Source: an uncultured Dehalococcoidia bacterium (lineage in GTDB: Bacteria > Chloroflexota > Dehalococcoidia > UBA2247 > RBG-13-53-26). Taken from it: a stretch of DNA of 64,000 bases. Positions 1,886 to 28,002 of the stretch are shown here, piece by piece. The translations under genes and the position numbers were made by a program. The notes beneath the pieces were generated by a model. The model was not told the DNA's origin and ran no database searches. It saw only the letters and a list, made by a program, of their open reading frames with translations. The stretch is from the NCBI GenBank assembly GCA_964492335.1, contig CAZBJX010000011.1, positions 878 to 64,877 of the forward strand, written 5' to 3'. How positions within the stretch are numbered: the first letter of the stretch is position 1; each line of letters opens with the position of its first letter.

Positions 1886-2070
1886 GGCCCGCCCCCGGTC
1901 CCTCGCCCGTATGCTAGCACACGCCCCCCGGCCCCGGTCAAACCCGCCCCGGCACGGGCCCGCCGGTTGATGGGAATTTGTGAGGGCCGGGACTGCCGCG
2001 GCCCCCTCTTTGTGGTACACTGCCTGTGCTCCCCGGCCGGCACCGCAGCCGGGGATGGGGCGGGCACCAG

Positions 2071-3810: not shown

Positions 3811-5195
3811 ACGATGGACAGGGTGCCCAGCGCCGAAGACCCCAACAACCTCCTCAAGGTCGCCGGTTCACTTTGATCAAGAAGCTCTTCTACTTCCTCC
3901 TGGAGACCGCCAACGACGCGTTGAGCTTCGCCCGATCACCGGTCGGGGGGATCCGGCGCCTCTACCGGGCCTCCCTCTACCGCAATGCGGCCTACCTCAT
4001 CCTGAGCGCGGTGGCCCTGGGCCTGACCGGCTTCGCCTACTGGATCGCCGCGGCCAGGCTCTATCCCGATGACGAGGTAGGGGTGGCCACCGCCACGGTC
4101 TCCGCCATGACGCTGCTGTCCATGCTCTCCCTGCTGGGCCTCGATTACGCTCTGATCCGCTTCATACCCGGCTCCGGGGAGAGGTCCAGGGACATCATGA
4201 ACAGCGCCCTGACCATAGGGACGGCGGCTTCCCTGGTCATGGCCCTGGTCTTCATCGCCGGACTCGACTGGTGGTCGCCGGGGCTCCATGCGCTGGTGGA
4301 GCAGCCGGGGCTGCTCCTGGCCTTCGTGCTGTCGGTGGCGGTCACCACCGCCTTCACCCTGCTGCAGCGCATATTCTCGGCCAAGCTGAGGTCGAGCTAC
4401 GCCCTGGTCATCGGCCTGGTGTTCGGCCTCCTGCGGTTCCTGCCCCTGGCCGTGATTGCCGCCTCATCGATGCCCCTGGGCATCTTCTATGCCTGGGTCA
4501 TCGCCCTCTGCGTGGCCACAACAACCGGCTTCCTCCTGCTCCCCCGGGTGGAGCCCGGCTACCGCCCGTCCCTGACCGTCAGGAGGCACCTGGTATCCCC
4601 CATGCTGCGGTTCGCCTTCGCCAACTACCTGGCCAATATCTCCATGACCGTCGCCGGCAGCGTCCTGCCGCTGCTGGTGCTGTACGTCCTCGGCAAGGAG
4701 CAGACCGCCTATTTCTACGTCGCCTGGACCTACAGCACCGTCATCGTGTCGGTGCTCTCCGGCGTGACCATCAGCCTCTTCGCGGAGGGCTCCCACGACC
4801 GCGAGCGGCTGAAGGAGTACATCCAGAAGAGCCTGAAGCTGACGGCCATCATACTGGTCCCGGTGGTGGGGCTGACGCTCCTGCTGGGCAGCCGGATACT
4901 GCTGGTCTTCGGCGAAGCGTACTCCGCCAACGCCACCCGCCTGCTGTGGCTGCTGGCGGCATCGGCCGTTCCCCTGGGCATCAACGCCACCTACATCGCC
5001 GTGATGCGCGTCTTCGGAGAGACCAGGGGCATCGTGGCCGTCACCCTGGCCTCGACCGTCATCACCCTGGGATCAAGCCCCACCCTGCTGTCCCGCATGG
5101 GCCTGACCGGCGTGGGGGTGGCCTGGCTCGTCAGCCAGGCACTGGTAGCGCTGTACGCCGGCTGGCAGATACTGCGGATCTACACCGCGCCCTGA
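3807..5195 (+). CDS. Wzx-like polysaccharide/oligosaccharide flippase (MOP superfamily)
   Basis: 12-14 predicted TM helices, typical Wzx N-terminus (LYRNAAYLILSAVALGLTGFAYWIAAARL). Putative GTG start at 3807 overlapping the upstream TGA (GTGA); the start is uncertain, an in-frame TTG is possible. Confidence 0.7.
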   Translation: MNDGQGAQRRRPQQPPQGRRFTLIKKLFYFLLETANDALSFARSPVGGIRRLYRASLYRNAAYLILSAVALGLTGFAYWIAAARLYPDDEVGVATATVSAMTLLSMLSLLGLDYALIRFIPGSGERSRDIMNSALTIGTAASLVMALVFIAGLDWWSPGLHALVEQPGLLLAFVLSVAVTTAFTLLQRIFSAKLRSSYALVIGLVFGLLRFLPLAVIAASSMPLGIFYAWVIALCVATTTGFLLLPRVEPGYRPSLTVRRHLVSPMLRFAFANYLANISMTVAGSVLPLLVLYVLGKEQTAYFYVAWTYSTVIVSVLSGVTISLFAEGSHDRERLKEYIQKSLKLTAIILVPVVGLTLLLGSRILLVFGEAYSANATRLLWLLAASAVPLGINATYIAVMRVFGETRGIVAVTLASTVITLGSSPTLLSRMGLTGVGVAWLVSQALVALYAGWQILRIYTAP

Positions 5196-6496
5196 GCGTC
5201 ATCCCCCCGCAGCGATGCCTCGTACAGGCGGACATGGGCCGCGGCCGCGTTCTCCCAGGAGTTCTCCTCCACGAAGCGGGCGATACTGCCGGCCATCTCC
5301 TGCCTCTCCTGCGGCGTGAGAGAGGAGAAGCGCAACATGGCCTGTCGCAGCGATTCCGGGTCCTCGGGCCGGTAGGTCAGCCCCAGCCCCCAGCGGCGCA
5401 CCAGGTCGCCGTCGTCCCCGGCATCGGCGGTGATGGCCGGGACCCCGTACTGCGCCGCCACGTACAGCACCCCGCTTACCGAGGCAAAGCCCTTCAGGTG
5501 GGACAGGATGACGGCGTCCGCCGCGCAGAAGTAGAGCGGGACCTCGTCTTCGGCGATATAGCGGTCGTCCACGGTGGTCCTGCCCGCCAGGCGGTACCGG
5601 CGGGCCAGGCGCCGGGGGTTGTTCTCCCGGTACTGCGGCAGCACCTTCCCGGCGAACACCAGCCGGCAGTCCAGGTCCAGGCCCGCCGCCGCCGCGAAGA
5701 TGGTGCGGAAGTCCTTGTAGGCGTGGTTGGTCCCGAAATGGAGCAGCACCAGATGGCCATCCGCCAGTTGCAGGCGCCGCCTGGCTTCCTCCCTGGACAC
5801 GGGGGCCGCCGATGGGGAGTAGACCGCCAGCGGTATGGTGAATATCCGGTCGCGGAACGGGGCCCTGGCATACGTGGCGGTGATGGAGGGGGAGTCGCTG
5901 AGGAAGGTCAGGCGGTTCCGCCTCATGGCCCGGCGGTAGAGCCGGTTGGTCAGGGCAATGCCCGGCCTCCCCCCCAGGACCAGGGCCGCCAGCAGGCGCA
6001 GGCACCTCGCCAGCTCGAGATGGAGGACGGCGCTCCCGAACTTGGCCCCCCAGCCCCGGACATCCTCCTCCCGCGAATGGACCCACAGCCCGTAGACGAT
6101 GTTCTTGCGGCGCTGGAGCAGGGCGAACAGCGGGTAGAAGACCTCCGGCACGGCCACCCCGGGAACATGGATGACGTCGAAGCTCTCCCGCCGGCAAACG
6201 CGACGGGCCATCTCCAGGGTGCAGGCGGTGGCCTGGATCTCATCGGCCACCTGCCGGATGGGCCTCAAGGGTATGAGCCGGGGAAGAAGCCGGCACACCC
6301 GGCCGCGGCGGCCGGCCGCCTCCACGAAGGAGATGTGCCGCACCCCCGCCACGAGCCCCTGGCTGTCCACCAGCCCGTCGAAGGAGACCAGGCTGATGTC
6401 GATGCCCCTGGCGGCCAGGGGCCCGCTCAGGCACCGCACGTACTCCTCGAAGTACCCCGGCGTGTGCGCCAGGGGCTCCACCAGCAGCAGCTTCAC
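5180..6496 (-). CDS. glycosyltransferase family 4 (GT-B, GT1/GT4 superfamily)
   Basis: GTG start at 6496 (MKLLLVEP...). C-terminal GT4 EX7E-like region (FASVSGVLYVAAQYGVPAITADAG). Converges on the flippase (16-nt tail overlap). Confidence 0.8.
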   Translation of the reverse strand: MKLLLVEPLAHTPGYFEEYVRCLSGPLAARGIDISLVSFDGLVDSQGLVAGVRHISFVEAAGRRGRVCRLLPRLIPLRPIRQVADEIQATACTLEMARRVCRRESFDVIHVPGVAVPEVFYPLFALLQRRKNIVYGLWVHSREEDVRGWGAKFGSAVLHLELARCLRLLAALVLGGRPGIALTNRLYRRAMRRNRLTFLSDSPSITATYARAPFRDRIFTIPLAVYSPSAAPVSREEARRRLQLADGHLVLLHFGTNHAYKDFRTIFAAAAGLDLDCRLVFAGKVLPQYRENNPRRLARRYRLAGRTTVDDRYIAEDEVPLYFCAADAVILSHLKGFASVSGVLYVAAQYGVPAITADAGDDGDLVRRWGLGLTYRPEDPESLRQAMLRFSSLTPQERQEMAGSIARFVEENSWENAAAAHVRLYEASLRGDDAQGAV

Positions 6497-6563
6497 CAGG
6501 TGCCCCCCGGACCCGGCCGCCGCGACGATGCCGCCGCGGGCGTTGGCCTTCCATCGCCGCCGC

Positions 6564-7646
6564 CTAGCGGCCGGCGATCCTGTCCCAGATCAATCGGCGG
6601 TTTCTCCACACGTAGCCTCTGTCGTACCAGGTGTTTCGCAACAGCATGGGCGCTTTGTGCATGAAGGCCCCCGGCATGGAGTAGCTCTTCTCATAGACCC
6701 GCACCGGCACCCGGGTCCCCCGGAATCGCTCCTTGAAGAAGGCCAGCCCGGGCGTGGCGGTGGCCCCGAAATCAACAGACGCGTACCCGCCGGCGCAGGC
6801 ATCTTCGATGGCCGCCTTCCAGCACAGCTTGTTGGCGTCGTCGGAGTCCTTCTGGTAGCTCCCGATCTTGGCCAGGTAGCACGTCGAACGGGTGTAATGG
6901 CACAGGAGTATGGCCGCAGGCTGGCCTCCGGAGAGCGCCACGAACATCTTCGACCTGTCCCTGAAGACCTCCAGCCTGGCCCGCAGCTCCTCTCTGGACG
7001 GCGCCTTCGTACGGTGCCGGGCGTAGTTGGCATACAGCATGTCCATGAAAAGGTCGGCATGCTTCATCTCCGGGTCCTCGGTGACCACCATACCCCTTTC
7101 CTCAGCCTGCCTCACGCCCTGCCTGATCATCCTGGACCATCGCCTCCATACGTTCTGCTCGAAGGGCGGCCGTATCTGCAGGATGTGGTTGCAGGGCAGC
7201 CGGGTCCCGGCCTCGTACCTGAAGCGGAACCCGCGCTCCAGCAGGGCGGGGGTGGGCTCCTGGGACTGGCTTTCCCCCGGTGCCGCGGTCTCCACCAGTT
7301 TGAAAGCGGCGCACCCCCTGGAGCAGTGCCGGTCAACATACCCCAGCAGGGCCGAAGTGGCCTCGAGCCTCTCCTCGCCGGACAGGTCCTTCCTCAGCAG
7401 CAGTCCTTCCACACCGCCCATCCTGGCGGAGTCCAGGGTCGTGTGCAGCAGATGTTGCTCCCTGACGATGGGGAGGATGCCAGCCAGCTCCGATGCGCGG
7501 CCCTCGACCAGCAGCGGAATGAACTGGAAACCGCCCGCCTCGTGCACCGGCTTCCAGTCATAATAGTGGAACAGGCTTCCCCCCTCCGCGTCCACGAAGG
7601 CGTTCCACCTCTCACGGTCGGCCCCGGTGGCCTCCCGTACCTTCAA
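6564..7646 (-). CDS. FemAB-like / BioF2-like GNAT-fold acyltransferase (Acetyltransf_6 family)
   Basis: TTG start at 7646 preceded by GAAAGGGGG, overlapping the upstream stop (TTGA). Motif LCWKAAIEDACAGGYASVDFGATATPGLAFFKERFRG typical of FemAB-like proteins. The ORF-track N-terminus (7647-7994) is an out-of-gene extension. Confidence 0.65.
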   Translation of the reverse strand: MKVREATGADRERWNAFVDAEGGSLFHYYDWKPVHEAGGFQFIPLLVEGRASELAGILPIVREQHLLHTTLDSARMGGVEGLLLRKDLSGEERLEATSALLGYVDRHCSRGCAAFKLVETAAPGESQSQEPTPALLERGFRFRYEAGTRLPCNHILQIRPPFEQNVWRRWSRMIRQGVRQAEERGMVVTEDPEMKHADLFMDMLYANYARHRTKAPSREELRARLEVFRDRSKMFVALSGGQPAAILLCHYTRSTCYLAKIGSYQKDSDDANKLCWKAAIEDACAGGYASVDFGATATPGLAFFKERFRGTRVPVRVYEKSYSMPGAFMHKAPMLLRNTWYDRGYVWRNRRLIWDRIAGR

Positions 7647-8941
7647 GTCACGGGCCCCCTTTCGTCGCCGGGGGCCGGACCCGGGGGCACGCACCCGGCC
7701 AGCACCTGCCCCATCTCCTCTATGTCCCTGCGGCCCACAGCGGGATTGACCGGCCACAGTAGCAGGGAGTCTCGGACCCGGCACACGTTCCGGGTCAACT
7801 GCTCCGGCCAGTACTCCTGGTGGCCGGGCCAGGTGGTCTGCAGGGGCAGTCCCCTCTCTGCGCACAGGTCCCGGATGCGCCGGATGTCGGCCCCCTCGAA
7901 GCTCATGGCCAGGTAGGAGTAGGTACTGCCCGCATCTGGGCCTGCGGCGCTTCGCGGGTAGCCGCACCCGAGGCGCGCCAGCAGCGCCTGGCATACCTCA
8001 ACCCTGCGGCGGTTGAAGAAGTCCAGTTTGCGCAACTGGGCCCGGCCCAGCTGCGCCACGACGCCCGGCATGGTCAGGAAGTACTGCCGCTTCCCGCCGT
8101 CAATGCCCCCTGCTGCCTCCCGGTGGCGCACCTCCATCAGTCCATCCCCTCTTCCCCCATCCACCGTCAGGGCCCTCGCCCGGCGGCCCGGCACGCAATT
8201 CATCACGGCGTTGCCGGTCCTGACACCCCAGCGCATCAGGAGCTTGGAGGCCCGCCGGCCCGGCTGGTTGAATACCGTCCTCTCCAGGAGCGGCACGAAT
8301 CCCCCGTTCACCACGGGGTACATGATACCGTAGTGGGTCCAGTTGCTCCGCCGGGACAGCGTCTGCATCAGATCGCGGGCCCTTTCGTGAGCAGCCCGGT
8401 CGCGGCACACCAGGAGTCCCCCGCTGAAGTTCAGTGTGCTCTTGCCCAGCGAGAAGGCTGCCATGTCGCCCAGCGTTCCCACCTTCCAGCCCTGGTGGGT
8501 CAGGCCCAGGCAATGGGCGCAGTCTTCGATGGCTACCAACCCCGTCTCCCGGGCATATGACAGTTGGGCCTCGTAGTTGCCGGCGGCCCTCCCGTAGTAG
8601 TGAGTGATGATGAGGCACCGGGACCGGTCACTGGTCTTCCTCTTCAGGTCATCCAGGTCCAGGCTCAGGTCGGCCGGGTCGATGTCCACGAAGACCGGGG
8701 CGGCCCCGGCCAGGCACACCGCGTCCCGGACCACGTTGCAGGTGAACGCCGGCAGGAGCACCTCCCGGCCGCGGGCATCCGCCACCCCCAGGGCCAGGTA
8801 GAGCGCCGTCCGAGCATACCTGGTGGCAGTGACATGGGGGACCCCGATGTAAGAGGCGAACTCGGTCTCGAAATCGCCCACCGCCGTTCTTCCCGGCGGG
8901 GCCAGGCAGGCCCGCACCTCTTCAGCCCCCCAGTACCTCAT
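7643..8941 (-). CDS. DegT/DnrJ/EryC1/StrS family PLP-dependent sugar aminotransferase
   Basis: ATG at 8941 overlaps the upstream stop (ATGA). Fold-type I aminotransferase motifs (LPAFTCNVVRDAV, DCAHCLGL, SLGKSTLN). Confidence 0.85.
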   Translation of the reverse strand: MRYWGAEEVRACLAPPGRTAVGDFETEFASYIGVPHVTATRYARTALYLALGVADARGREVLLPAFTCNVVRDAVCLAGAAPVFVDIDPADLSLDLDDLKRKTSDRSRCLIITHYYGRAAGNYEAQLSYARETGLVAIEDCAHCLGLTHQGWKVGTLGDMAAFSLGKSTLNFSGGLLVCRDRAAHERARDLMQTLSRRSNWTHYGIMYPVVNGGFVPLLERTVFNQPGRRASKLLMRWGVRTGNAVMNCVPGRRARALTVDGGRGDGLMEVRHREAAGGIDGGKRQYFLTMPGVVAQLGRAQLRKLDFFNRRRVEVCQALLARLGCGYPRSAAGPDAGSTYSYLAMSFEGADIRRIRDLCAERGLPLQTTWPGHQEYWPEQLTRNVCRVRDSLLLWPVNPAVGRRDIEEMGQVLAGCVPPGPAPGDERGPVT

Positions 8942-9585
8942 CGGCCGTCGTCCCATTCTTCCGTCCAGAACCCCAACATGAGCACCCGGACCAGCGTCAC
9001 CCGCCCGCACAGACTGGAGCCCATCTTCTCCTGGAGTCGCAGGACCGCGCGGTTATCGGTCAGCGTCGCTGCTATGACCACCGACTTGCCCTGGCCCCTG
9101 AGGAACTCCAGCTGCCGTACACCCTGGGCAACGACGATCCCCTGCCCTCTGTATCGCGAGCTCGTCAGGGCGTGGCCCAGGTAGGCCTCCACCAAGTAAT
9201 CCATCTTCTTGACAGGAGGATCGATGCGGGCCCTGGCATCGATGGCCACCCATACCCAGGAGGCAACCTCGCCGTCGACCACGGTCATCAGCCCCACCTT
9301 GTGCTCCGCCAGCAACCTGCGGGCATCCCTGGCGGAGAACGGCGGCCTGAAGCAGAGGCCTCCATTGATCAGGGCCTCCAGGTCCGGCCGGCCCCACACC
9401 ACCTCTAAGCGGGCCCCCGTCATCTTCGGGGCCGGCCCACTGGGAACGCTTCCCAGCACGCTGCGCCAGAGGTGCCACTCCCGGCGCCAGTAGACGGGCC
9501 GCAGGCAGTACCAGAACGCCCTCCGCACCAGGCCGCCCGGCCCCTCGCGGGCAACTATCTCCCGGCCCTCCCGCGCCAGCCTCAT
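8938..9585 (-). CDS. GNAT family N-acetyltransferase
   Basis: ATG at 9585 overlapping the ATP-grasp stop (ATGA); an alternative GTG start at 9603. GNAT motif YRGQGIVVAQGV. Confidence 0.7.
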   Translation of the reverse strand: MRLAREGREIVAREGPGGLVRRAFWYCLRPVYWRREWHLWRSVLGSVPSGPAPKMTGARLEVVWGRPDLEALINGGLCFRPPFSARDARRLLAEHKVGLMTVVDGEVASWVWVAIDARARIDPPVKKMDYLVEAYLGHALTSSRYRGQGIVVAQGVRQLEFLRGQGKSVVIAATLTDNRAVLRLQEKMGSSLCGRVTLVRVLMLGFWTEEWDDGR

Positions 9586-10823
9586 CGCCTCACCCCGGGC
9601 CACCGGCCGCCCGCCCCTGCCCCCGGTCCGGCGGCCCCTCCCGCCTGCCGGCGCACTACCATCCTCAGAGGGATATTGAGGGCCATGGCTATGACCGGAA
9701 GAGGATCGCGTATGGACATGTCCTCATACTTAGTCGCCCCGAAGTCCAGAAAAGCCTTGATGGTGTCCAGCCTGCTGCCGCCCTGGCGCAGGTAAGCCGG
9801 CAGGGCCCGGGCGTCACTCCACAGGCACCGGGTCCTGACCCCCACTTTGTAGTCAGGCACCGGGCCGACATCGCCGTCCAGCGCCAGGCGGTACAGGAGA
9901 TAGGGGACCTCCACCCCGGAAGCAACGGCCTGATAGAGAGACCCCCAGAGCCTGGGGTTCATCTCCAGCAGCCGGGGCGTGTTATCCCGCTCGTCCAGCC
10001 GGAAGTCGGCCATGAGCACGCCGTGCCACTTCATCTCCGCCGCCAGCGCCTCCAGGCACCCCGTCATCTCCGGCTGCAGGACGCTCACCCGCACCACCAT
10101 GAGGCCCCCGCCCGGCGGGAGGTTCCTGATGCTGCGGGCCACCATGCGGGCCCTGGGCTCCCCGTGATGGAAGAGGCCGGCGGCCACGTAGTCGGTCCCG
10201 GGGACGTACTCCTGGACGAACGGCAGGTCGCCGGGGCCGGAGCGGTACCTGGCCACCGTGTCCCGGTAGACCCGCACCGCCTCCTCCCGGCCCCCCACCA
10301 GCGACATCCCCTTGCCCCCCTCGGCGGAGCGGACCTTGATCACGGCCGGGTACGACAACCGTGCGGCCAGGGCCTCCGCTTCCTCCAGCGAGTCGGGGAA
10401 ATGGGTCACGGGGACCGGCACGCCGACGCGGCGGGCGAGATCAGCCATCTTCCGCTTGTCATGGGCCATCTCCATGAACTCGTATTGGTGCACCGGGACC
10501 CTGAGGTGCGGGGCCTCGGACCTGATGGTATCGGCAAACCTGGAGATGACCAGGGTTTCTTCATAGGCGGGCATCAGCACCCGGTATTCGGGGTGCCGGT
10601 TGGCGAACTCGCATATGGCGCGGATGAAGCCTTCGGGGTCGGCCTCATAGCCGGGATAGGTGAAACGCTCAGTGCAGTAGCGCGAGGAGGCCGCCGGCTG
10701 GAAGAAGTATCGCGGCAGGCGGTGCTGCTCCCCGCAGGCCACCCGGATGCCGCGGCGGCCGAGGCACCTGGCGGCCACCAGGGCATGCCAGAGCGCGGCC
10801 GACGTCAGAATAACCCCCGACAC
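9582..10823 (-). CDS. ATP-grasp domain ligase (carboxylate-amine ligase-like)
   Basis: ATP-grasp signatures (AVIKVRSAEGGKGMSLV, LLEMNPRLWGS). Start assigned to GTG at 10823 just after the upstream gene TAG (10829-10831); start uncertain. The ORF-track N-terminal 80 aa overlap the upstream gene. Confidence 0.65.
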   Translation of the reverse strand: MSGVILTSAALWHALVAARCLGRRGIRVACGEQHRLPRYFFQPAASSRYCTERFTYPGYEADPEGFIRAICEFANRHPEYRVLMPAYEETLVISRFADTIRSEAPHLRVPVHQYEFMEMAHDKRKMADLARRVGVPVPVTHFPDSLEEAEALAARLSYPAVIKVRSAEGGKGMSLVGGREEAVRVYRDTVARYRSGPGDLPFVQEYVPGTDYVAAGLFHHGEPRARMVARSIRNLPPGGGLMVVRVSVLQPEMTGCLEALAAEMKWHGVLMADFRLDERDNTPRLLEMNPRLWGSLYQAVASGVEVPYLLYRLALDGDVGPVPDYKVGVRTRCLWSDARALPAYLRQGGSRLDTIKAFLDFGATKYEDMSIRDPLPVIAMALNIPLRMVVRRQAGGAAGPGAGAGGRWPGVRR

Positions 10824-10828
10824 TCCGA

Positions 10829-11893
10829 CTAGTCCGCCTTTGCCGCCTCCGATACTTCCTCCAGGGTGACCCGCTCCTTCCGGCGCAGGCTCTCCTGGGC
10901 CGCGTGCAGGACCATGCTGGTCATCATCGCCTGCTCCACGGGGACTGGCACCTCTCCCTCGCCGGCGATGCTCTTGACGAACTCCCCGATCAGCGGCCGG
11001 TAGGCCAGGTTCGGCAGGTTGAAGTAGTTCCCGGACAGCACCCCGGTGCCCAGCCTCCACATCTTCCTGGCGAAGAAGCCGGCGTCATCGAAGGGGGTGG
11101 CGATGCCGCGCGTCTCGGAGAAGACGTCGTTCCTCACATCCAGAAACAGGCTCCCGGCGGTGCCGTGTATGTCCAGGGTGAACCGGGACAGGGCCGTGAC
11201 CCAGGAGATATCCGCCGTGGCCACGCTGCCGTCCGCGAACTCCATGCTTATGACGGCGTAGTTGACGAAGTCCATGCCCCCCCCGGTCAGATCGCCGCCC
11301 GAAGCGTAGACGGCCTGCAGCGGGGCGAAGCCCTTCATCCAGAGGACCATGTCGACAACATGGGGGCCGAAATCATAGAGCGCCCCCCCGGGGTGGTAGA
11401 GCCAGGTGTTGAGGGTCCAATGCGTGGGGAAGTTGGCCAACCCCACCCCGTGAATGGTGACCAGCCGGCCCAGGTACCCGCCCGTGATCCTGGCCCTGGC
11501 CGCGCCCACCGACGGGAAGAACCTCCAGTTCAGCACCACACACAGCTTGATGCCGCTCTCCGCGGCCATCCGGCGGATGCGGGCCGCGTCCGAGAGCGTG
11601 CTGGCCAGGGGCTTCTCCAGCAGCACGTGCCGCCCCTTCCCGGCCACCGTCCGCACGATCTCCAGGTGGGTGGGGGTGGGAGTGCAGACGTCCACCATGG
11701 CAATGTCCTCGTCCTGCAGCATCTCCTCGCAACTGGAGCAGCAGCGGGGTATGCCGAACTCCCTGGCGACGCTCGCGGCCAGCTCCTGGTCCCGGTCGGC
11801 AATGGCCGCCACCTCCACGCCGGGAATGGCCCGGTAGGCCGGCAGGTGCCCCCTGCGGGCAACGGCCCCGGCGCCGACGATGCCCACCTTCAC
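10829..11893 (-). CDS. Gfo/Idh/MocA family NAD(P)-dependent oxidoreductase (UDP-sugar dehydrogenase, WbpB-like)
   Basis: Rossmann motif MKVGIVGAGAVARRGHLPAY, EKPLA motif. GTG start overlaps the DUF362 stop (GTGA). Confidence 0.85.
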   Translation of the reverse strand: MKVGIVGAGAVARRGHLPAYRAIPGVEVAAIADRDQELAASVAREFGIPRCCSSCEEMLQDEDIAMVDVCTPTPTHLEIVRTVAGKGRHVLLEKPLASTLSDAARIRRMAAESGIKLCVVLNWRFFPSVGAARARITGGYLGRLVTIHGVGLANFPTHWTLNTWLYHPGGALYDFGPHVVDMVLWMKGFAPLQAVYASGGDLTGGGMDFVNYAVISMEFADGSVATADISWVTALSRFTLDIHGTAGSLFLDVRNDVFSETRGIATPFDDAGFFARKMWRLGTGVLSGNYFNLPNLAYRPLIGEFVKSIAGEGEVPVPVEQAMMTSMVLHAAQESLRRKERVTLEEVSEAAKAD

Positions 11894-12801
11894 GGCACGC
11901 TCCCTCCCCCGGCCCGGAACCTCTGCTGGCTCTTGCGCTGCAGGAAGCTGGCCATCCTCAACAGGCGCATCTGGGACCAGCTGGTCTCGAAGTCCACCCG
12001 GTCTATCCTGTCACCGGCCAGCACGTACCTCATGGACCCCACCCCCGACGAAGCACTCTTGCGGATATGGCCCACTGACCGGGGGCGCAGGCCCATCAGC
12101 CGGGCGCCGTAGGCGTCGGCGGCCACCGGGTCCCGGCTGCAGAAGATGGCATTCTGCGGTATGGGCACCCCGAAGGCCGGCCCCCAGATGCCGCCCATCA
12201 CCGTTATGGCGTCCACCACGCAAAGGTCAGGGCGCATGGCCAGGTTCACGTCGGCGATGACGTCATCCAGGCAGGGGTGATAGGCGCCCTTCTCCACCTC
12301 GGGCAGGCAGCCGAACTGGTTCTTCAGGCAGCAGGTCATGGTGGAGATGGGGTTGGTCTTCAGCCTGGGGGTGGTGATGAAGTACCGTGGCTGGTCCAGG
12401 ATATCCGGCACCGGGACCTCCTTGAAGTACCGGCCGTTGATCTTCCGCATCAACGCCTTTGTCCGGCTGAGGTTGACGAACTCGGCGTTCCACTTCTCCA
12501 GGACGGGGACGTAGCCGAACCAGCGGATGAACCGGTCGGCCAGGACCACGGTGGCATCGCTCTCCACCACGCAGATCCGGAGGCCCTGGCAGCTCTCCCG
12601 CAGGTGCTGCAGCAGGGCATCCAGGAACACCGGGTGGGTGATAGTGGCCGTCTCAGCGGTCCGCGCATCGCACACGTTGATCTTGATGACCACCGGGAGA
12701 CGGTTGTCCAGGGGGGGCAACTGCAGGCGGGCCAGGGCCCGGCCGATGCCGCCGCGGGCATCCTGGTACCCCGATCGGGCCACGGCCACCAGGCTGTTCA
12801 T
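11890..12801 (-). CDS. DUF362 domain protein (uncharacterised enzyme, COG2006-like)
   Basis: Internal ATG at 12801 (MNSLVAVARSG...) overlapping the upstream stop (ATGA). The ORF-track upstream 79 aa is out of gene. Confidence 0.55.
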   Translation of the reverse strand: MNSLVAVARSGYQDARGGIGRALARLQLPPLDNRLPVVIKINVCDARTAETATITHPVFLDALLQHLRESCQGLRICVVESDATVVLADRFIRWFGYVPVLEKWNAEFVNLSRTKALMRKINGRYFKEVPVPDILDQPRYFITTPRLKTNPISTMTCCLKNQFGCLPEVEKGAYHPCLDDVIADVNLAMRPDLCVVDAITVMGGIWGPAFGVPIPQNAIFCSRDPVAADAYGARLMGLRPRSVGHIRKSASSGVGSMRYVLAGDRIDRVDFETSWSQMRLLRMASFLQRKSQQRFRAGGGSVP

Positions 12802-14513
12802 GCCCCCGCCCCCTTCCATCCCTGCTCCTCGAGTATGTAGAGCACCAGGTCCGGGTTGGCGTACACCTTGCTGCAGTTGGTGCTGGCTTCCATGGCGGCC
12901 GTGATCTCGGTGGCGGCCTGGGGCGAGTTGTAGTAGAAGTCCATCACTGCCCGGTCGTGGTCGCTGATGATGACGTAGCGCGGGGCGATGTCGGGGTCGC
13001 CCAGGGTGCCGAACCGCACCAGCTCGCCGTCCCTCCACTCCAGGGCGCCGTAGCCGAGGTCCTTTCCATACCGCTCGTAGTACTTCAGCGAGCCTATGGG
13101 CGCCCCGCCGATAACGTAGCCCCCCTGCGTCTTCTGGTGGAACATCTCCGCCCCGGCGAAGTACCCCGGGGAGAGGTAGTCCATGGACTGGCTCCCATAC
13201 TTGGCCACGAAGGACAGGGGAGCGGCCACCAGCAGGAACAGGCAGAGCGCCACCGCGGTGGCCCGCCCCTGCAGCAGCTTGACCCCGAAGTAGGCTATGA
13301 CGGGGAGCACGAAGACGAAGACCCGCTGGAAAAGCTCATGCAGGTAGCTCCCGCCGACGACCACGGCCGCTATCCCGCACCCGGCCACCACCGCCACCAT
13401 GGTGACGTCATGATGGGCCATCCGCTTGAACCTCCAGGCGGCGAAGGCCCCCGCAGCAGTCAGCAGCACGAACAGGCCCGAGAAGATGACCCTGGCCCCG
13501 GCCACCGCGGAGTGCGCCTCAGACCCCGTCAGCGGATTCAGCACCCCCTTCTGGGCCGCCTCATCCAGCCGGAGGGCCTGGGTCACGAACTGGCTCAGGC
13601 TCCAGTCGAAGTAGACCGCCGCCCCGTAGATGGACCACGCCCCGACGAACAGCACGGCCAGGGCCAGCAGGTTCAGGGACTTCACCCGCCTGGTGATGAA
13701 GAGCGTGCCCGTGACGGCCAGGGCCACGAAGGACCCCAGCAGGTGCGCCACGGCCGAGGCCCCGTAGATGATGATGGCCACCAGCCGCCTGCTGACGGCG
13801 CCGGGGCCCGGCTGCCAGAACCGGGGCATGGTCAGCACCGCCAGCAGGCTGAACAGGAAGAACACGCCGAAGGCCTGGGCGCCGGTATTCTGGGTCTCGA
13901 ACCAGAAGCCCAGGTAGAAGAGCCACATGGCCGCCCAGCAGTGGTTGGGGTTGGCCCGGCCGATGGTGTTGCGGAAGAGCAGGAACACGGGCAGGAACAT
14001 CAGGCACTGCCACAGGAACGGCACCCAGTCTATCAGACGGGCCAGGCCCTCCATGCTGGCCCCCGACATCTTGATCCCCATGGCCCAGAATATCCAGGCG
14101 GTGGGCCAGTTGTGCTGCCACACCGCCTTCTGGCTGAAGCTGCCGGTGCGGGTGATGAATTCGATGTACCCCATGTCGCCGTAGGCATCGGACAGGAACG
14201 GCTGCGCCCCCCCCACTATCAGCGGGGCCAGCCAGATGGAGACCACCAGGAAGGCCAGTTGCAGGAAGAGAAGCTTCCCGTGGTCCTCCCGGGAGACCCA
14301 CAGGACGGCCGAGGCCACAGTGAGGACCCCCAGGGACACGTAGAACGCGGCCGGGAAGCTGGGAAGCAGCCCCCAGAACCCGATCTGCAACCGCGCCTCG
14401 GCCACGCTCCAGGCCCACAGCGCCAGGGCGATGATGGTGAGGGCCATCGAGGCCCGGGCCGGCGCCAGGCCCTGCAGCCGCCACTCCCCGGCCCGGGCGC
14501 CCACGGCGGTCAC
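12798..14513 (-). CDS. large polytopic membrane protein (12 or more TM) with C-terminal soluble domain; candidate GT-C-type glycosyltransferase or glycan polymerase
   Basis: Hydrophobic helices throughout residues 1-420, then a soluble about 150-aa C-terminal domain. GTG at 14513 overlaps the upstream stop (GTGA); an alternative ATG at 14447. No WWDYG (AglB/PglB) motif. Function is inferred from operon context only. Confidence 0.55.
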   Translation of the reverse strand: MTAVGARAGEWRLQGLAPARASMALTIIALALWAWSVAEARLQIGFWGLLPSFPAAFYVSLGVLTVASAVLWVSREDHGKLLFLQLAFLVVSIWLAPLIVGGAQPFLSDAYGDMGYIEFITRTGSFSQKAVWQHNWPTAWIFWAMGIKMSGASMEGLARLIDWVPFLWQCLMFLPVFLLFRNTIGRANPNHCWAAMWLFYLGFWFETQNTGAQAFGVFFLFSLLAVLTMPRFWQPGPGAVSRRLVAIIIYGASAVAHLLGSFVALAVTGTLFITRRVKSLNLLALAVLFVGAWSIYGAAVYFDWSLSQFVTQALRLDEAAQKGVLNPLTGSEAHSAVAGARVIFSGLFVLLTAAGAFAAWRFKRMAHHDVTMVAVVAGCGIAAVVVGGSYLHELFQRVFVFVLPVIAYFGVKLLQGRATAVALCLFLLVAAPLSFVAKYGSQSMDYLSPGYFAGAEMFHQKTQGGYVIGGAPIGSLKYYERYGKDLGYGALEWRDGELVRFGTLGDPDIAPRYVIISDHDRAVMDFYYNSPQAATEITAAMEASTNCSKVYANPDLVLYILEEQGWKGAGA

Positions 14514-15406
14514 AGCTCTCCCCGCAGCAGGGAGAAGGTCTCGCGCGCCTGCTCCGCCCTCGAGACGCCGACCGCCACGCCGCTCAGCGACGGCAGCGCG
14601 GCCACGTAGGCCGCCGCCTCGGCCGGCTTCACGTACCCCGCCGCCAGGATGCTGAAGGCAATTACCTCCGCTCCCGGCACCTGGCGCAGGGCCTCCTCGC
14701 ACGCCTCCTTCGAGGGGCACATCTGGAAGCCCGCAGGATTGAAGGAGGCCGCCAGCGCCACGCCGCGGGGGTCGATGCCCCACTCCCGGAACCTCCTCAC
14801 CAGGTACGGCAGGTTGCGGGTCTCGAAGCCGGGCTTGACGCCGCGGCCCGACATGTACTCGATGTGGGCCTCCGCCACCCATTTCATGTCCAGCGCCAGG
14901 GCCATGTCCGTCAGCAGCTCGTGGAGCATGACGGAGGCCAGCACGCACTTCCCCCCGGCGGCAGACCTCACGCGGGAGGTCTCCAGGGAGAGGTAGCTCC
15001 GCAGCAGCGCCGCCGGGTCCCCGAAGAGCGCCCCACGGGCCCCGCTGGCCACGGCCCGCCAGTTGCCAGACGCCAAGATCTGCCGGCCCACCCCCCTGGC
15101 CAGGCCCGGCACTCCGCCGGCCCGCACCGCCATCCTGACGTACTCATAAGCATAGGGCACAATGACATAGAGCCTCAGCCCCTCCGGCTTCCTGTCCCGC
15201 ACCAGCCTCCGCAGTATGCCCAGGGTGGTCTCACTGGCGCTGAACATGAACCCGTCCGCCCCGTGGTCCAGGGCGGCGGCCACCAGGCCGGCCCCGCGCT
15301 CAGGGCTGCCCACGTCGGCCCCCCGGGAAGCAGCCCTGGCCTGCGACAGATGGCTTATCCCGTGGAAGGGGTTGTCGCCCACCAGCAGCAGCCTCTTCCC
15401 GTCCAT
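14510..15406 (-). CDS. hypothetical protein (possibly TIM-barrel enzyme), unknown function
   Basis: ATG at 15406 immediately after the upstream TAG (TAGCATG). No family recognised from sequence alone. Confidence 0.45.
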   Translation of the reverse strand: MDGKRLLLVGDNPFHGISHLSQARAASRGADVGSPERGAGLVAAALDHGADGFMFSASETTLGILRRLVRDRKPEGLRLYVIVPYAYEYVRMAVRAGGVPGLARGVGRQILASGNWRAVASGARGALFGDPAALLRSYLSLETSRVRSAAGGKCVLASVMLHELLTDMALALDMKWVAEAHIEYMSGRGVKPGFETRNLPYLVRRFREWGIDPRGVALAASFNPAGFQMCPSKEACEEALRQVPGAEVIAFSILAAGYVKPAEAAAYVAALPSLSGVAVGVSRAEQARETFSLLRGEL

Positions 15407-15407
15407 G

Positions 15408-16394
15408 CTAGCGCACCCCACCACCCATGCCCTTCATGGCGTCGGTGATCCTCTCCACCTGGCTGGCGGCATCGAAGCCGGGCTCCGCCACCCCGCCCTC
15501 CAGGATGGACTGCACGAAGGCGCAATCCTCGCGGACGTACTCGGAGCCGCCGATGAAGAAGGGCACCGCATCGCCCAGGTCGTGCCGGTGCCAGGTGCTG
15601 ACCCGGCCGGCCAGGGACAACTCCACCCGGTCCTCGTTGACCCTGAGGGCCCCCTTCGGCCCCTGCACCACCACCTCGAACTCCGGCATGCGGTGCTCCG
15701 GCCGGCACCAGGATGTCCTGATCTCCCCCTTCAGGCCGCCGGGGGTGACCACGGAGCACTCCGCCTCGTCTTCCGCCGGGCCACCCAGAAGGGACCTGAC
15801 CTGCGCACCGGTGACATCCATGGGCCCGAACAGCCACAGCGCCAGGTCGACGGCGTGACACCCCAGGTCGTCGATGGCCCCACCCCTGGCCGAGGCCTTC
15901 CCGCCGCCCCTGGCGCCGCAGAAGTCCGAGGACCAGGCGCAGGCCTCAAACGAGGACGGCGGGCCCAGTACGCCCTCTCCAAGCATCTGCTTCGCCTTCG
16001 CGAAGGTGACCGAGAACCGGCGGTTGTAGCCCACCATGCTGACGCCGCCCCAGACCCTGGCCAGCGCGGCGGCCTCCGCCGCCTCCGGGAAGCTGGTGGC
16101 CAGCGGCTTCTCCACGAAGACATGCCGGGCAATGCCCGCCTGGTACACCTGCTTCAGTACGGGGAAATGGGAGCGGGCGGGGGTGGTGATATACACCGCG
16201 TCCAGCCCCAAGCCGGCCAGTTCCTCCACGCCGGCCACCACCCGGACCGCCGGGAGGAACCTGCCGGCAAACCGGCGCACCAGCGGGCTGATCTCGCAGA
16301 AGGCCACCAGTTCGGCCTCCTCCATGGAGCCCAGAATGCTGCCATGCAGCAGCGCCATCTTGCCCAGCCCCACCACACCAACGCGCACCTTCAT
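15408..16394 (-). CDS. Gfo/Idh/MocA family oxidoreductase (second copy)
   Basis: MKVRVGVVGLGKMALLHGS Rossmann motif, EKPLA motif. ATG overlaps the GT2 stop (ATGA). Confidence 0.85.
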   Translation of the reverse strand: MKVRVGVVGLGKMALLHGSILGSMEEAELVAFCEISPLVRRFAGRFLPAVRVVAGVEELAGLGLDAVYITTPARSHFPVLKQVYQAGIARHVFVEKPLATSFPEAAEAAALARVWGGVSMVGYNRRFSVTFAKAKQMLGEGVLGPPSSFEACAWSSDFCGARGGGKASARGGAIDDLGCHAVDLALWLFGPMDVTGAQVRSLLGGPAEDEAECSVVTPGGLKGEIRTSWCRPEHRMPEFEVVVQGPKGALRVNEDRVELSLAGRVSTWHRHDLGDAVPFFIGGSEYVREDCAFVQSILEGGVAEPGFDAASQVERITDAMKGMGGGVR

Positions 16395-17449
16395 CGCCCG
16401 TAGATCCAGACCCCGAAGACGTACCCCGTGGCCATCAGGGAGAGGTTGGCCACGATGGCCGCCGCCTGCGGCAGGCTGGCCGGCCGGTAGAAGCGGACCA
16501 GCCGCCCGCCGATCGACCGGAAGAGCAGCCGGCGCAGAAAGACGCTCTCCGCGGCCAGCGGACGGCTGCCGTACCGCGACACCAGACCCTTCATCAGCGC
16601 CCTAGTGTGCCCCTCGCGCAGGCAGAAGTCAAGCATGTAGGAGGGCTTCGCCCTGCCGGCCACCACCTTGTGGTGGACCACGGCGTCGCGGCGAAAGACG
16701 ATGCGGCCGCCAGGCATGTGCTTCCTGATCCGCAGGCACATCTCCGCCTCTTCGCCGCCGGCGGGGTTGAACTTCTTGCGGCCTCCCTCGCACCTTCCCA
16801 GGCTGGTCTCCCAGAGGCCCGCCTTCTGGAAGACCTCCCGCCGGAAGGCCATATTGCTGCCAGTGACGTTCCGGATGGAGCCATCGGCCTCCACGATGAG
16901 GGCCTTGTGACCGGTGCAGCCGATCACGAAATCGAACTCCACGGGGAACCACAGCGGAGGCCGCCCTCCCGGCCAGGCGGGGACCGCCTCACCGCCTACC
17001 GCCACCACCAGGGGGTCATCGAAGGCCGCCGCCAGGCTGGCCAGCCAGTCCTTCTCCGCCACCGCGTCGTCGTCCAGGAAGGCCACCACTTCGCCGGTGG
17101 ACGCGCCCACGGCCACGTTCCTGGTCTCCGACAGGCCGGGGCGGCCGGTGGAGAGGAGCAGGGTCACCCGGGATCCCAGTATCGCCCCCAGGCGCTGGTA
17201 GAGGGCCTCGTTGTGGTCGATGGCCACTATGACCTGGTGGGGCGCCAGGGTCTGCGCCAGGGCGGATTCCACTGCCTCCAGCGTGTCCTGCAGGCGCTCC
17301 TGGGTATAAGCGCAGATGACCACCGACACGCTGAGGGGACTTGCGTCCTCCCCGCGAGCGGTGGTCCGCCCGGAGGCGCCTGCTGCCGGCTCGGGTCCTG
17401 GCTGTCTGCGCTCGGCTCCGGCTACGCCTCCATCTGCCCCGGGCGCCAC
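16391..17449 (-). CDS. glycosyltransferase family 2
   Basis: GT2 N-terminal signature LSVSVVICAYTQERL, DxD (LDDDAV). There is no in-frame ATG before residue 230 of the ORF, so the start must be GTG (candidates 17449 or 17326-17332); start uncertain. Confidence 0.7.
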   Translation of the reverse strand: MAPGADGGVAGAERRQPGPEPAAGASGRTTARGEDASPLSVSVVICAYTQERLQDTLEAVESALAQTLAPHQVIVAIDHNEALYQRLGAILGSRVTLLLSTGRPGLSETRNVAVGASTGEVVAFLDDDAVAEKDWLASLAAAFDDPLVVAVGGEAVPAWPGGRPPLWFPVEFDFVIGCTGHKALIVEADGSIRNVTGSNMAFRREVFQKAGLWETSLGRCEGGRKKFNPAGGEEAEMCLRIRKHMPGGRIVFRRDAVVHHKVVAGRAKPSYMLDFCLREGHTRALMKGLVSRYGSRPLAAESVFLRRLLFRSIGGRLVRFYRPASLPQAAAIVANLSLMATGYVFGVWIYGR

Positions 17450-18240
17450 GCGCCGAGCCGAGCCATGATCTTCAAATGCTGCCACCCGGCCTTCCAACTG
17501 TGAAGCTTCGTTTCCCCGATACGCGATTCGTACCGCACCGGGATCTCGCGCACCCTGAGCTTCATGCGGCTGGCCTTGATGGCGATCTCCGGCTCTATGG
17601 CGAACCCGCCGGAGGATATCCCCATCCGGCTCAGGCAGCACTTCCTGATGCCGTACAGCCCGGTGGAATAGTCTCCCGCCTGGAAGCGATAAATCCGCCT
17701 CATTATACCCTGAAACACGGCGTTGCCAAGCTGGTTGAAGAGGGGGATGTTGTCCCGGCCGGTCGCCCTGGACCCGTACACCAGGTCGCAGGTCTCCAGG
17801 GCCTCGGTCATGCCCGGGATGGCCTCCGGCGGATAGGTGCCGTCGGCATCGATGAAGATGACGACATCCCCCCGCGCATGCCTGACGCCGGTGAGCATGG
17901 CCTTGCCCTTGCCGCCGTTCCGGGCAAGGCGGACCACGCCGCAGGGGAACCGGCTGGCGACCAGGGACGTGGCATCGGACGACCCGTCATCCACCACCAG
18001 CACCTCGTGCTGCCCATCGATGGCCCGGTACAGCCTCTCCAGGACCACGGGGAGCCCCTCCTCCTCGTTGTAGGCGGGTATTATCACCGTGGCCGCGATC
18101 CGGGGCCCCACCTCGGCCCACTTCAGGACCGTCTCCCCGCACGTGGTTTCGTGGCGGCCGCTCAGGAAGTCCACCGGCAGGACCGGCCGGCCGACCGCGA
18201 GATCATTCAGTTCCAGGCGCTCATCGAGTTCCATGCCCAT
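17422..18240 (-). CDS. GT2 polyprenol-phosphate sugar synthase (dolichol-phosphate mannosyltransferase DPM1-like)
   Basis: ATG at 18240 with AAGGAG RBS 5 nt upstream. Motifs TVIIPAYNEEEGL, VVDDGSSD, DADGTYPPE, and a C-terminal region typical of the DPM1/GtrB family. Confidence 0.8.
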   Translation of the reverse strand: MGMELDERLELNDLAVGRPVLPVDFLSGRHETTCGETVLKWAEVGPRIAATVIIPAYNEEEGLPVVLERLYRAIDGQHEVLVVDDGSSDATSLVASRFPCGVVRLARNGGKGKAMLTGVRHARGDVVIFIDADGTYPPEAIPGMTEALETCDLVYGSRATGRDNIPLFNQLGNAVFQGIMRRIYRFQAGDYSTGLYGIRKCCLSRMGISSGGFAIEPEIAIKASRMKLRVREIPVRYESRIGETKLHSWKAGWQHLKIMARLGAWRPGQMEA

Positions 18241-18360
18241 CTCCGCTCCTTCGCTTGATCGTCCCATCTTCAACTGAGGTCTCCGCGCACTTGAACGCAG
18301 ACGGTTGAGTCCTTTCCCCCTTCGACCACTCCCCCGAAGCCTGCCGGCGCTGTCCACCAC

Positions 18361-18389
18361 AAAAGAAAAACCGACCTCAAGGTCGGTTT
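18361..18389 (-). terminator. rho-independent terminator at the 3-prime end of leader RNA A
   Basis: Minus-strand hairpin AAACCGACC-TTGA-GGTCGGTTT followed by TTTTTCTTTT (plus-strand A-tract 18361-18370). It sits upstream of the GT2 gene on the same strand. Confidence 0.75.
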
Positions 18390-18650
18390 CACTACTGGCT
18401 CCCTGTTCCCCAAGTGACCACTTACGGGCAACAGTTCATCGCCCCCGGGCAGACTCCAGAATGCGCCTACAAGTCAGTCTCCTGTATTATCGCCCCCTCC
18501 GCTTTCCATACCGGCCCGCGCTCACGACCGTGCCGGCGCCACCACAGGAACTCATGGAGTCAACTGCAACCTGCTCCCCGGCCGCGCCCTGTCCCCCGCA
18601 ACCAAGTCCACTTCGCCCCTCTGATCGGACACTTCGGTGACAGCTAACTG
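18361..18650 (-). promoter_or_regulatory. about 290-nt cis-regulatory leader RNA A (candidate riboswitch/attenuator) upstream of the glycan operon
   Basis: Minus-strand promoter TTGACT-N17-TACATC at 18657-18685, no credible ORF, lower GC, terminated by an intrinsic terminator. The 3-prime about 180 nt are homologous to the leader at 36597-36889 (shared TGGTCACTTGGG, GGGAGCCAGTAGTGAAACCGACC, AGGAGACYGAC..TAGGC, TCYGYCCCGGG). Confidence 0.6.
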
Positions 18651-18843
18651 TTATTAGATGTACCATGCGACGCTCGAATAGTCAAGCGTTTTTGCTGCCG
18701 TTTTGCACGCAATGGCACCGGTCCCCGGAGATGCCGCGGCAGTCTGTCGCCGGGCCCCGGTGCCAGGCCCTGTGGCGCTACTGCCCGAAGGCTGTACCAA
18801 ATCCCGCGAGCATGGTAGTATGAAGGGCAATTCGGGCCAAGCC

Positions 18844-20730: not shown

Positions 20731-20750
20731 GATGCGATGAAGGCGGCGCC

Positions 20751-21416: not shown

Positions 21417-21437
21417 GCCCGCATCCAGGAAACCAGG

Positions 21438-22655: not shown

Positions 22656-22706
22656 AGGCGCCGCGGCACAGGATCAGGAAGGCCGTACAGGAGGGGCCCG
22701 ACAGCC

Positions 22707-22955
22707 ATGGTCACGCCGCTCAATGTCCCCAGGGAGATACGCGTTGCCGCCGCCGGCGACGGCTGCCCGGTCTCCGTCCGCATCGCCGGCCGGCAGCGGC
22801 GGGTGGCCCGCATCAGCAACCAGTGGCGCATAGACGACGAGTGGTGGCGCCAGGAGATATCCCGCCGTTACTTCGAGCTGGAGCTCGGGGACGGCTTGGT
22901 GATCACCGTATTTGAGGACCTGGTCTCGGGGCGCTGGTACCAGCAAAGGCTCTAG
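22707..22955 (+). CDS. small conserved protein (82 aa) between imuB and dnaE2, unknown function
   Basis: ATG at 22707 with CAGGAGGGG RBS. Stop TAG at 22953-22955 lies 2 nt before the dnaE2 ATG. Basic/aromatic-rich sequence (WRIDDEWWRQEISRRYFELELGDG). Confidence 0.5.
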   Translation: MVTPLNVPREIRVAAAGDGCPVSVRIAGRQRRVARISNQWRIDDEWWRQEISRRYFELELGDGLVITVFEDLVSGRWYQQRL

Positions 22956-22957
22956 CC

Positions 22958-27999: not shown

Positions 28000-28002
28000 C
28001 CG

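Follow-up and report, generated by a model that had tools for sequence, protein, structure and literature searches.

Twelve glycan-biosynthesis genes behind a predicted c-di-GMP-II riboswitch in an uncultured Dehalococcoidia bacterium

Mosaic glycan clusters are a known kind of locus, and so are surface-polymer genes under riboswitch control. Riboswitches of the cyclic diguanylate (c-di-GMP)-II class were reportedly described by Lee et al. in 2010. The class has been reviewed as predominantly clostridial (PMC12564702), and among enzymes that tailor bacterial glycans the TupA-like ATP-grasp protein Cj1438C of Campylobacter jejuni amidates capsular glucuronic acid (GlcA) (PMC11800379). Here we describe a 64,000-nucleotide stretch of DNA from an uncultured Dehalococcoidia bacterium of the Chloroflexota (contig CAZBJX010000011.1, positions 878 to 64,877; hereafter, the window), in which a string of 12 glycan-biosynthesis genes (G1–G12) stands behind a c-di-GMP-II riboswitch. 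These genes, together with a neighboring Wzx-type flippase, a carbamoyltransferase, and a right-handed β-helix protein, probably build a tailored extracellular or surface glycan that would be switched on by c-di-GMP through transcriptional control by the riboswitch. An earlier note on this DNA had recognized the gene string as a glycan pathway, but its account was without the riboswitch, the flippase, the carbamoyltransferase, the β-helix gene, and the archaeal-type conserved core described below.

The riboswitch aptamer was identified with the Rfam covariance model RF01786, for which the gathering score is 53.5 bits. The match at 18372–18455 on the minus strand scored 63.8 bits, with all of model positions 1–84 aligned. 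It is located in the 5′ leader of the gene string, within a 579-nt divergent intergenic region, and the aptamer–terminator unit lies 118 nt upstream of the G1 start. The expression platform is an intrinsic terminator (18358–18390, minus strand) that reads GAAACCGACC-UUGA-GGUCGGUUUU followed by a U-run; its 10-bp hairpin (−14.8 kcal/mol) is the dominant element when the leader is folded to minimum free energy. The 3′ conserved segment of the aptamer, GUGAAACCGACC, doubles as the 5′ arm of this terminator, with ACCGACC common to both. The loop–tail pseudoknot pair is UCAC/GUGA here, as against GCAC/GUGC in the consensus, which amounts to a compensatory change. By family score this is a bona fide c-di-GMP-II aptamer, and ligand binding is predicted.

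The strand shared between aptamer and terminator suggests that the riboswitch is probably an ON switch, with c-di-GMP turning the operon on. At high c-di-GMP, ligand binding would keep the shared strand within the aptamer; with the strand so held, the terminator could not form, and RNA polymerase would read into G1–G12. The window contains a second c-di-GMP-II aptamer (36789–36873, plus strand, 64.6 bits), and its overlapping terminator (36855–36881) is near-identical to that of the first operon. Comparable leaders were found in related genomes. In the closest relative (locus L007), an aptamer of 47.5 bits and a terminator (7115–7138) stand just ahead of the G1 orthologue, and a Dehalococcoidia locus (L008) has one aptamer of 57.5 bits upstream of its G1 orthologue. 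The metagenome-assembled genome of an uncultured Chloroflexia bacterium (L011) carries three tandem aptamers at 6649–7072 (51.8, 60.7, and 59.4 bits, spaced by ∼167 nt) ahead of the G1 orthologue, with terminator-like hairpins overlapping the 3′ ends of the first and the third. Such a triple tandem arrangement is unusual. The gene order aptamer–G1–G2–G3–G4 is conserved in all three of these loci. A literature search returned nothing joining the c-di-GMP-II riboswitch with Chloroflexi.

The 12 genes run on the minus strand from 18240 down to 5180. The G+C content at third codon positions is 0.84–0.95 in every G1–G12 frame, in a window of ∼68% G+C, and the frames are unambiguous; metagenome contigs identical to this DNA (Logan runs SRR15734599–603) yielded the same 12 gene models with an independent gene caller. 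At 9 of the 11 junctions the genes overlap or are at most 5 nt apart: 4-nt ATGA/GTGA/TTGA overlaps are present at G2/G3, G4/G5, G5/G6, G6/G7, G8/G9, G9/G10, and G10/G11 (seven junctions), and gaps of 1 and 5 nt at G3/G4 and G7/G8, respectively. For G2, an alternative GTG start at 17449 would give a 28-nt overlap with G1. The start at 17329 was preferred on the basis of the gene caller, the start of the family 2 glycosyltransferase (GT2) domain, and a corresponding 77-nt G1/G2 gap in L007. A gap of 67 nt separates G11 from G12, whose N terminus (MKLLLV) is typical of family 4 glycosyltransferases (GT4). No convincing internal terminator was found across the operon (5 terminator-like sites against 4.3 expected from shuffled sequence), and the sole strong terminator-like site is that of the riboswitch in the leader. 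These features support G1–G12 as one tightly packed glycan-biosynthesis operon. The earlier note had described a 13-gene operon at 5180–18240 in which every junction was an overlap or a gap of 0–4 nt. The gene string is real, although it comprises 12 genes (the number to which the note's own list also adds up), and the seven overlaps and the 1-nt gap agree with that description, whereas the 5-, 92-, and 67-nt gaps do not. Judged by these junction lengths and the terminator count, the claim of a tight operon was largely right yet overstated. Internal promoters or terminators had been named as what would refute it; no convincing internal terminator was seen, but one strong promoter-like site lies within G1.

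The operon opens with two GT2 enzymes. G1 (17422–18240, 272 amino acids; PF00535, 105.7 bits), which is preceded by the Shine–Dalgarno sequence AAGGAG, falls into the polyprenyl-phosphate sugar synthase class (DPM1/AglJ/ArnC-like). Its top NCBIfam matches are all polyprenyl-phosphate glycosyltransferases (AglJ, dolichyl-phosphate hexose transferase, ArnC, and PpgS) and are all below equivalog cut-offs, with AglJ at 115 bits against 325. G2 (16391–17329, 312 amino acids, with a C-terminal transmembrane helix) is AglG-like, matching NF041394 over the full model length at 207 bits against a cut-off of 440. By these scores, G1 and G2 are homologous to AglJ and AglG but not equivalogs of them. G5 (12798–14513, 571 amino acids) is a polytopic membrane protein with at least 10 transmembrane helices and a C-terminal soluble domain of ∼130 amino acids, and is a candidate Wzy/EpsG-like polymerase or GT-C transferase. 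No Pfam match was found for G5 itself, whose family counts 1673 representatives; EpsG was matched weakly by 2 of 36 remote relatives (E = 6e-5). The AlphaFold2 (AF2) model of G5 is poor (predicted local distance difference test (pLDDT) 57), and its top Foldseek matches, ArnT, AftA, and AglB, are all GT-C enzymes and not significant, so that the GT-C assignment is a lead only. G12 (5180–6496, 438 amino acids) is a GT4 glycosyltransferase. The Wzx-type flippase (3873–5195, plus strand; Polysacc_synt_3, 50 bits against a cut-off of 23) is convergent with the operon, and its 3′ end overlaps G12 by 16 nt.

At the center of the operon are two Gfo/Idh/MocA oxidoreductases, G3 (15408–16394, 328 amino acids) and G7 (10829–11893, 354 amino acids). 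The nucleotide-binding (GxGxxA in G3), EKP, and D-x3-H motifs are intact in both. Against the model for archaeal UDP-N-acetylglucosamine 3-dehydrogenase, G3 and G7 scored 70 and 104 bits, respectively (cut-off 450), and against that for IolG 84 and 128 bits (cut-off 355). In a PDB sequence search, WlbA (3q2k) came fourth for G3 (59.5 bits) and about 41st for G7, behind entries such as 6nor, 6jw6, 6a3f, and 2glx, which we take to be the aminoglycoside 3″-dehydrogenases GenD2 and KanD2, levoglucosan dehydrogenase, and anhydrofructose reductase. By sequence, then, the closest solved relatives of G3 and G7 are other sugar oxidoreductases, not WlbA/WbpB. Roles in inositol catabolism or aminoglycoside synthesis, as the IolG, 6nor, and 6jw6 matches might imply, were rejected because the scores are far below cut-offs and the genes stand among glycosyltransferases and a flippase.

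G3 is paired with G4 (14510–15406, 298 amino acids), an uncharacterized, highly conserved protein for which no Pfam, NCBIfam, or PDB sequence match was found. More than 1378 homologues share 50–84% identity with the query. The AF2 model (pLDDT 90.6) is a (β/α)8 barrel, whose best Foldseek matches are aldo-keto reductases (TM-score 0.57, 12% identity). The Aldo_ket_red family was weakly matched by 6 of 36 G4 relatives (best E = 0.016), whereas G4 itself gave no significant match. No invariant lysine is present in the family alignment, so that by the criterion of the Asp–Tyr–Lys–His tetrad G4 is not a canonical aldo-keto reductase. An assignment to AglQ/Agl32 was also rejected, those proteins being cellobiose-2-epimerase-like, ∼372 amino acids long, and not (β/α)8 barrels. 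The partner of G7 is G6 (11890–12801, 303 amino acids), a DUF362 protein (PF04015, 136 bits) for which the PDB sequence search gave no match. DUF362 belongs to the same Pfam clan (CL0471) as the N-terminal domain of LarA (PMC11770544), and the DUF362 literature yielded nothing beyond this clan tie.

For comparative analysis, 80 loci (L008–L087), the best 80 of 123 G4 relatives, were fetched through the G4 family from GTDB species representatives. They are mostly from Bathyarchaeia; those that match best come from Dehalococcoidia and other members of the Chloroflexota, and Gemmatimonadales and WOR-3 contribute a single genome each. G3 is immediately upstream of G4 in 77 of these 80 loci. In about half of them a G1-like GT2 directly precedes the pair, and in about half another GT2 directly follows it. 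DUF362 adjoins a Gfo gene in 13 of the 14 loci that have DUF362. ATP-grasp was seen in 7 of 80 loci, a nearby DegT-family gene in 14 by clustering and in 3 by stricter coverage, G11 in 1, and G9 and G12 in none. The block G1–G2–G3–G4–G5 is collinear in the Chloroflexota loci L008–L011 and in one Bathyarchaeota contig (L005), and only L007, where G4 is 84% identical, retains all 12 genes in the same order. This synteny marks the operon as a mosaic of an ancient core shared with archaea (G1–G5), a second conserved pair (G6–G7), and a lineage-specific block (G8–G11) plus G12. The G3–G4 pair, which is common to Bathyarchaeia, appears to be ancient. A metagenome scan anchored on G10 returned two short contigs only.

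In L007 (15836–20151), the carbamoyltransferase, DegT, FemAB-like, and GT4 genes are split into fragments, probably through assembly indel errors rather than decay. The Gfo–G4 glycan clusters of Bathyarchaeia recurrently include membrane proteins of the DUF1616 and DUF2206 families, a de-N-acetylase of the PIG-L family, a winged-helix regulator, and small uncharacterized proteins of ∼170 and ∼130 amino acids. The literature search gave no mention of Npun_F2552.

Genes G8–G11 form the tailoring block. G8 (9582–10823, 413 amino acids) is a generic ATP-grasp ligase with CPSase_L_D2, ATPgrasp_Ter, and PRK12767-like matches. G9 (8938–9585, 215 amino acids) is a divergent acyltransferase resembling GCN5-related N-acetyltransferases (GNATs), with a YRGQGI motif and an Acetyltransf_3 match at E = 0.02; its four weak PDB matches are all GNATs, over motif A. 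At the G9 position, L007 has an unrelated GNAT (32% identity) that matches Acetyltransf_1. G10 (7643–8941, 432 amino acids) is a pyridoxal phosphate (PLP)-dependent aminotransferase of the DegT/DnrJ/EryC1 family (PF01041, 141 bits, residues 21–198 only), with Asp-140 and Lys-167 in the expected motifs. Its N-terminal ∼190 amino acids align well, and the C-terminal half is divergent. G11 (6564–7646, 360 amino acids) is a FemAB-like GNAT (Acetyltransf_6, PF13480, 43.8 bits against a cut-off of 22); it did not pass the threshold of FemAB itself (PF02388), scored 39.8 bits with TIGR03019 against a cut-off of 260, and found no relative in the PDB sequence search. With an ATP-grasp ligase and a FemAB-like GNAT present, it is reasonable to hypothesize that the glycan is decorated with amide or aminoacyl groups, and the attachment of an amino acid or amine by G8 and G11 is plausible on the strength of their families. 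The presence of these two proteins had been pointed out in the earlier note and was borne out by family matches, as were the two GT2 enzymes, two Gfo/Idh/MocA oxidoreductases, DUF362 protein, DegT aminotransferase, and GT4 listed there; its polytopic protein, unclassified enzyme, and GNAT correspond to a protein of 571 amino acids with ∼12 transmembrane helices (G5), to the unclassified 298-amino acid G4, and to the weakly matching G9.

Two further genes flank the operon. A NodU/CmcH-type carbamoyltransferase (18820–20526, plus strand; Carbam_trans_N 217 bits, Carbam_trans_C 227 bits) is divergent from it, has a counterpart in the corresponding place in L007, and probably O-carbamoylates the glycan. 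Downstream of the flippase, a right-handed β-helix protein (2026–3810, plus strand; Beta_helix and NosD matches), with a homologue near the cluster in L011, is a possible glycan-modifying or glycan-cleaving enzyme. The flippase, the β-helix protein, and the carbamoyltransferase are assigned functionally to the locus.

The observed riboswitch, gene families, junctions, and synteny are best accommodated by the c-di-GMP-controlled glycan pathway proposed at the outset, for which we infer the following order of steps. G1 would load a sugar onto polyprenyl phosphate, and G2 and G12 would extend the glycan. G3 and G4 may act as an oxidize-then-reduce or isomerize pair working through a keto-sugar, with G7 and G6 as a second remodeling pair of this kind. 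One Gfo enzyme would supply a keto-sugar to the aminotransferase G10, G9 and/or G11 would acylate the resulting amine, and G8 would form an ATP-dependent amide bond. The carbamoyltransferase would add O-carbamoyl groups, Wzx would flip the lipid-linked unit, and G5 would polymerize or transfer it outside the membrane. The substrates, the part played by G5, and the regulation are put forward in the same conditional sense.

Several findings weigh against this reading. Several more distant bacterial loci have the core genes but no aptamer. Among the window ORFs scanned (the 12 operon proteins and ∼35 others), no initiating phosphoglycosyl transferase of WbaP/WecA type was found, although one could lie elsewhere in the genome, and neither a chain-length regulator or co-polymerase, nor an exporter, nor nucleotide-sugar synthesis genes were found in the window; the pathway is therefore incomplete as seen. 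The role suggested for G5 depends on a poor structural model and on similarity that is sub-threshold throughout. Every operon enzyme is below the curated equivalog cut-offs, which means that no substrate can be assigned. Finally, with the G2 start at 17329, G1 and G2 are separated by 92 nt, and a σ70-like site (TTGGCA-16-TATAAT, 11 of 12 matches, 17729–17702, minus strand) lies within the G1 coding sequence upstream of this gap; together these could uncouple G2–G12 from the riboswitch.

Four other accounts of the locus were weighed. In that of the earlier note, the two Gfo enzymes, the DegT aminotransferase, and the GNAT follow the WbpB/WbpE/WbpD logic toward a UDP-2,3-diacetamido-hexuronic acid, to which the ATP-grasp and FemAB-like proteins add an amino acid or peptide. 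In its favor, one operon brings together a Gfo protein, a DegT enzyme in which the PLP lysine is present, and a GNAT-like protein, G3 does match WlbA, and G2 resembles the glucuronosyltransferase AglG. WbpD, however, is a hexapeptide-repeat (left-handed β-helix) N-acetyltransferase, and no Hexapep match was obtained with any of the 12 operon proteins; nor was there a match to UDPG_MGDP_dh, the family of WbpA-type UDP-sugar 6-dehydrogenases, among the scanned ORFs. The comparison with WbpB-type models that the note itself had proposed as a check also went against it: G3 and G7 (70 and 104 against 450) fell far short, neither reached any curated subfamily cut-off, and WlbA was the top match of neither Gfo protein. 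G10 is closer to 4-aminotransferases such as perosamine synthetase (best PDB relatives, 89 bits) than to WbpE (55 bits). Co-occurrence in related genomes, a second proposed check, tied the Gfo genes to G4 (77 of 80) or DUF362 (13 of 14) in genomes mostly without DegT (14 of 80). As each has its own conserved partner that is not an aminotransferase, the two Gfo enzymes are not a WbpB-like duo serving one. A hexuronamide product was a guess resting on the sub-threshold AglG-like match, whereas the view that the locus departs from textbook O-antigen and capsule clusters was supported. ATP-grasp amidation of GlcA has its precedent in C. jejuni (PMC11800379). Taken as a whole, the diacetamido-hexuronate account is unlikely, while a narrower oxidize–transaminate–acylate logic may still hold for one Gfo enzyme with G10 and G9 or G11. 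A similarly low probability is given to the possibility that G1, G3, G4, and G5 form a lipid-linked sugar remodeling system, by analogy with mycobacteria. In the mycobacterial route, DprE1/DprE2 act on decaprenyl-phosphoribose, and the Aft/Emb transferases follow. Here, the DPM1-like GT2 may make a polyprenyl-phosphate hexose, the Gfo enzyme and the aldo-keto reductase-like barrel may epimerize it through a keto intermediate, and a GT-C-like enzyme may transfer the rare sugar outside the cell. If true, the enzyme family would be both new and widespread and the donor sugar likewise new, with the system under c-di-GMP control in Chloroflexota.

The archaeal flavor of the core raises the prospect of a horizontally acquired system for glycosylating S-layer or pilin proteins, with AglJ/AglG-like assembly, flipping, and G5 as an oligosaccharyltransferase-like GT-C enzyme. 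AglJ and AglG are the best named matches of G1 and G2, the G1–G5 core is common to Bathyarchaeia (the source of most of the best 80 G4 relatives), and AglB is, with ArnT and AftA, among the non-significant top fold matches of G5. All of the Agl matches are nevertheless under the equivalog cut-offs, the G5 model is unreliable, and the relatives of G5 weakly match the polymerase family EpsG rather than STT3; moreover, c-di-GMP control and the paired second glycan operon point more to a matrix or adhesion polysaccharide. We regard protein glycosylation as distinctly improbable. Still less credence is given to the idea that the genes are not one regulatory unit, the riboswitch controlling G1 only, an internal promoter driving G2–G12, and the tight packing reflecting co-location. 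This could appeal to the conserved G1/G2 gap (92 nt here, 77 nt in L007) and to the promoter-like site within G1. Promoter-like sites were found, however, at a frequency that is not significant (2 against 0.9 expected), no terminator was found between G1 and G2, and the order aptamer–G1–G2–G3–G4 is retained in L007, L008, and L011.

The rest of the window gives the setting of the operon. The second aptamer heads a second glycan operon (36789–49804) that encodes a GT2, an uncharacterized protein, a FemAB-like Acetyltransf_6 protein, a DUF354 protein, a GT4, a 662-amino acid protein with 11 transmembrane helices, a polysaccharide deacetylase, and a GNAT, with a convergent Wzx-like gene beside it at 47243–49804. 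Its layout is that of the first operon, yet the proteins are only 21–25% identical. Adjoining this locus (49787–51667, plus strand) is the gene of a secreted-type protein that combines Ig-like domains (He_PIG/Big_9) with a type I dockerin at its C terminus. An SOS-mutagenesis-type cassette (20733–26161, plus strand) comprises LexA, a partial ImuB/IMS-domain protein, and a DnaE2-like DNA polymerase III α subunit, and the same neighbors are present in L007; from LexA, the ImuB-like gene, and DnaE2, the window is bacterial. The nearest named relatives of the HisF encoded in the window are from Chloroflexi (71–73% identity), and this, like the synteny of the cluster, points to a probable Chloroflexota host. 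An osmotic/stress block (27199–35595, minus strand) contains a trehalose-phosphatase, a GT20 trehalose-phosphate synthase, a TreT-like trehalose synthase, an MscS–DUF5752 fusion, a Na+/H+ exchanger with a CBS domain, Usp, and an NrpR-type regulator (NRD1_2 domains, 239 bits). The NrpR family is best known as the archaeal nitrogen repressor.

What is new in the locus is the combination of its elements, the c-di-GMP-II control in Chloroflexota, and the two widespread uncharacterized enzyme pairs at the cluster core. With two riboswitch-headed glycan operons in one window, it offers a concrete candidate c-di-GMP regulon for a phylum with few cultured members. The two recurrent pairs, Gfo with a new TIM barrel and Gfo with DUF362, are central to surface-glycan clusters of Bathyarchaeia and Chloroflexota. 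Solving the reaction of G4 would give an annotation to many "hypothetical" genes of archaea and bacteria, and might bring to light a sugar modification that is new.

Compared with known systems, the locus shares with the WbpA-B-E-D-I (WlbA–D) pathway of Pseudomonas and Bordetella the joint presence of a same-superfamily oxidoreductase, a DegT aminotransferase, and an acetyltransferase candidate, but it differs in having no WbpB orthology, hexapeptide acetyltransferase, 6-dehydrogenase, or 2-epimerase, and in the conserved partners of its oxidoreductases. Like the Agl N-glycosylation system of Haloferax volcanii, it has two successive GT2 enzymes, the first DPM1-like and the second AglG-like, with a Wzx/AglR-type flippase nearby; in contrast to that system, scores are below cut-offs, the host is a bacterium, and AglB was not identified. 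Wzx/Wzy exopolysaccharide loci such as eps of Bacillus subtilis (EpsG) likewise combine a flippase with several GT2 and GT4 glycosyltransferases, enzymes for acyl modification, and a polytopic protein as candidate polymerase, whereas here an initiating phosphoglycosyl transferase, a co-polymerase, and a tyrosine kinase were not seen, and the pathway opens with an enzyme of the polyprenyl-monophosphate class. With the C-terminal ATP-grasp domain of C. jejuni Cj1438 (PMC11800379), G8 has in common its place inside a glycan cluster and a plausible carboxylate–amine ligation. As Cj1438C is TupA-like and G8 instead matches CPSase_L_D2, ATPgrasp_Ter, and PRK12767 types, the precedent holds at the level of the superfamily only. 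The leader element resembles described c-di-GMP-II riboswitches in its full-length match above the gathering score, its position in a 5′ leader, its terminator-type platform, and the cell-surface genes downstream. It departs from those reviewed (PMC12564702) in its Chloroflexota host, in the two large glycan operons that would be under such control, and in the three tandem aptamers found in a relative.

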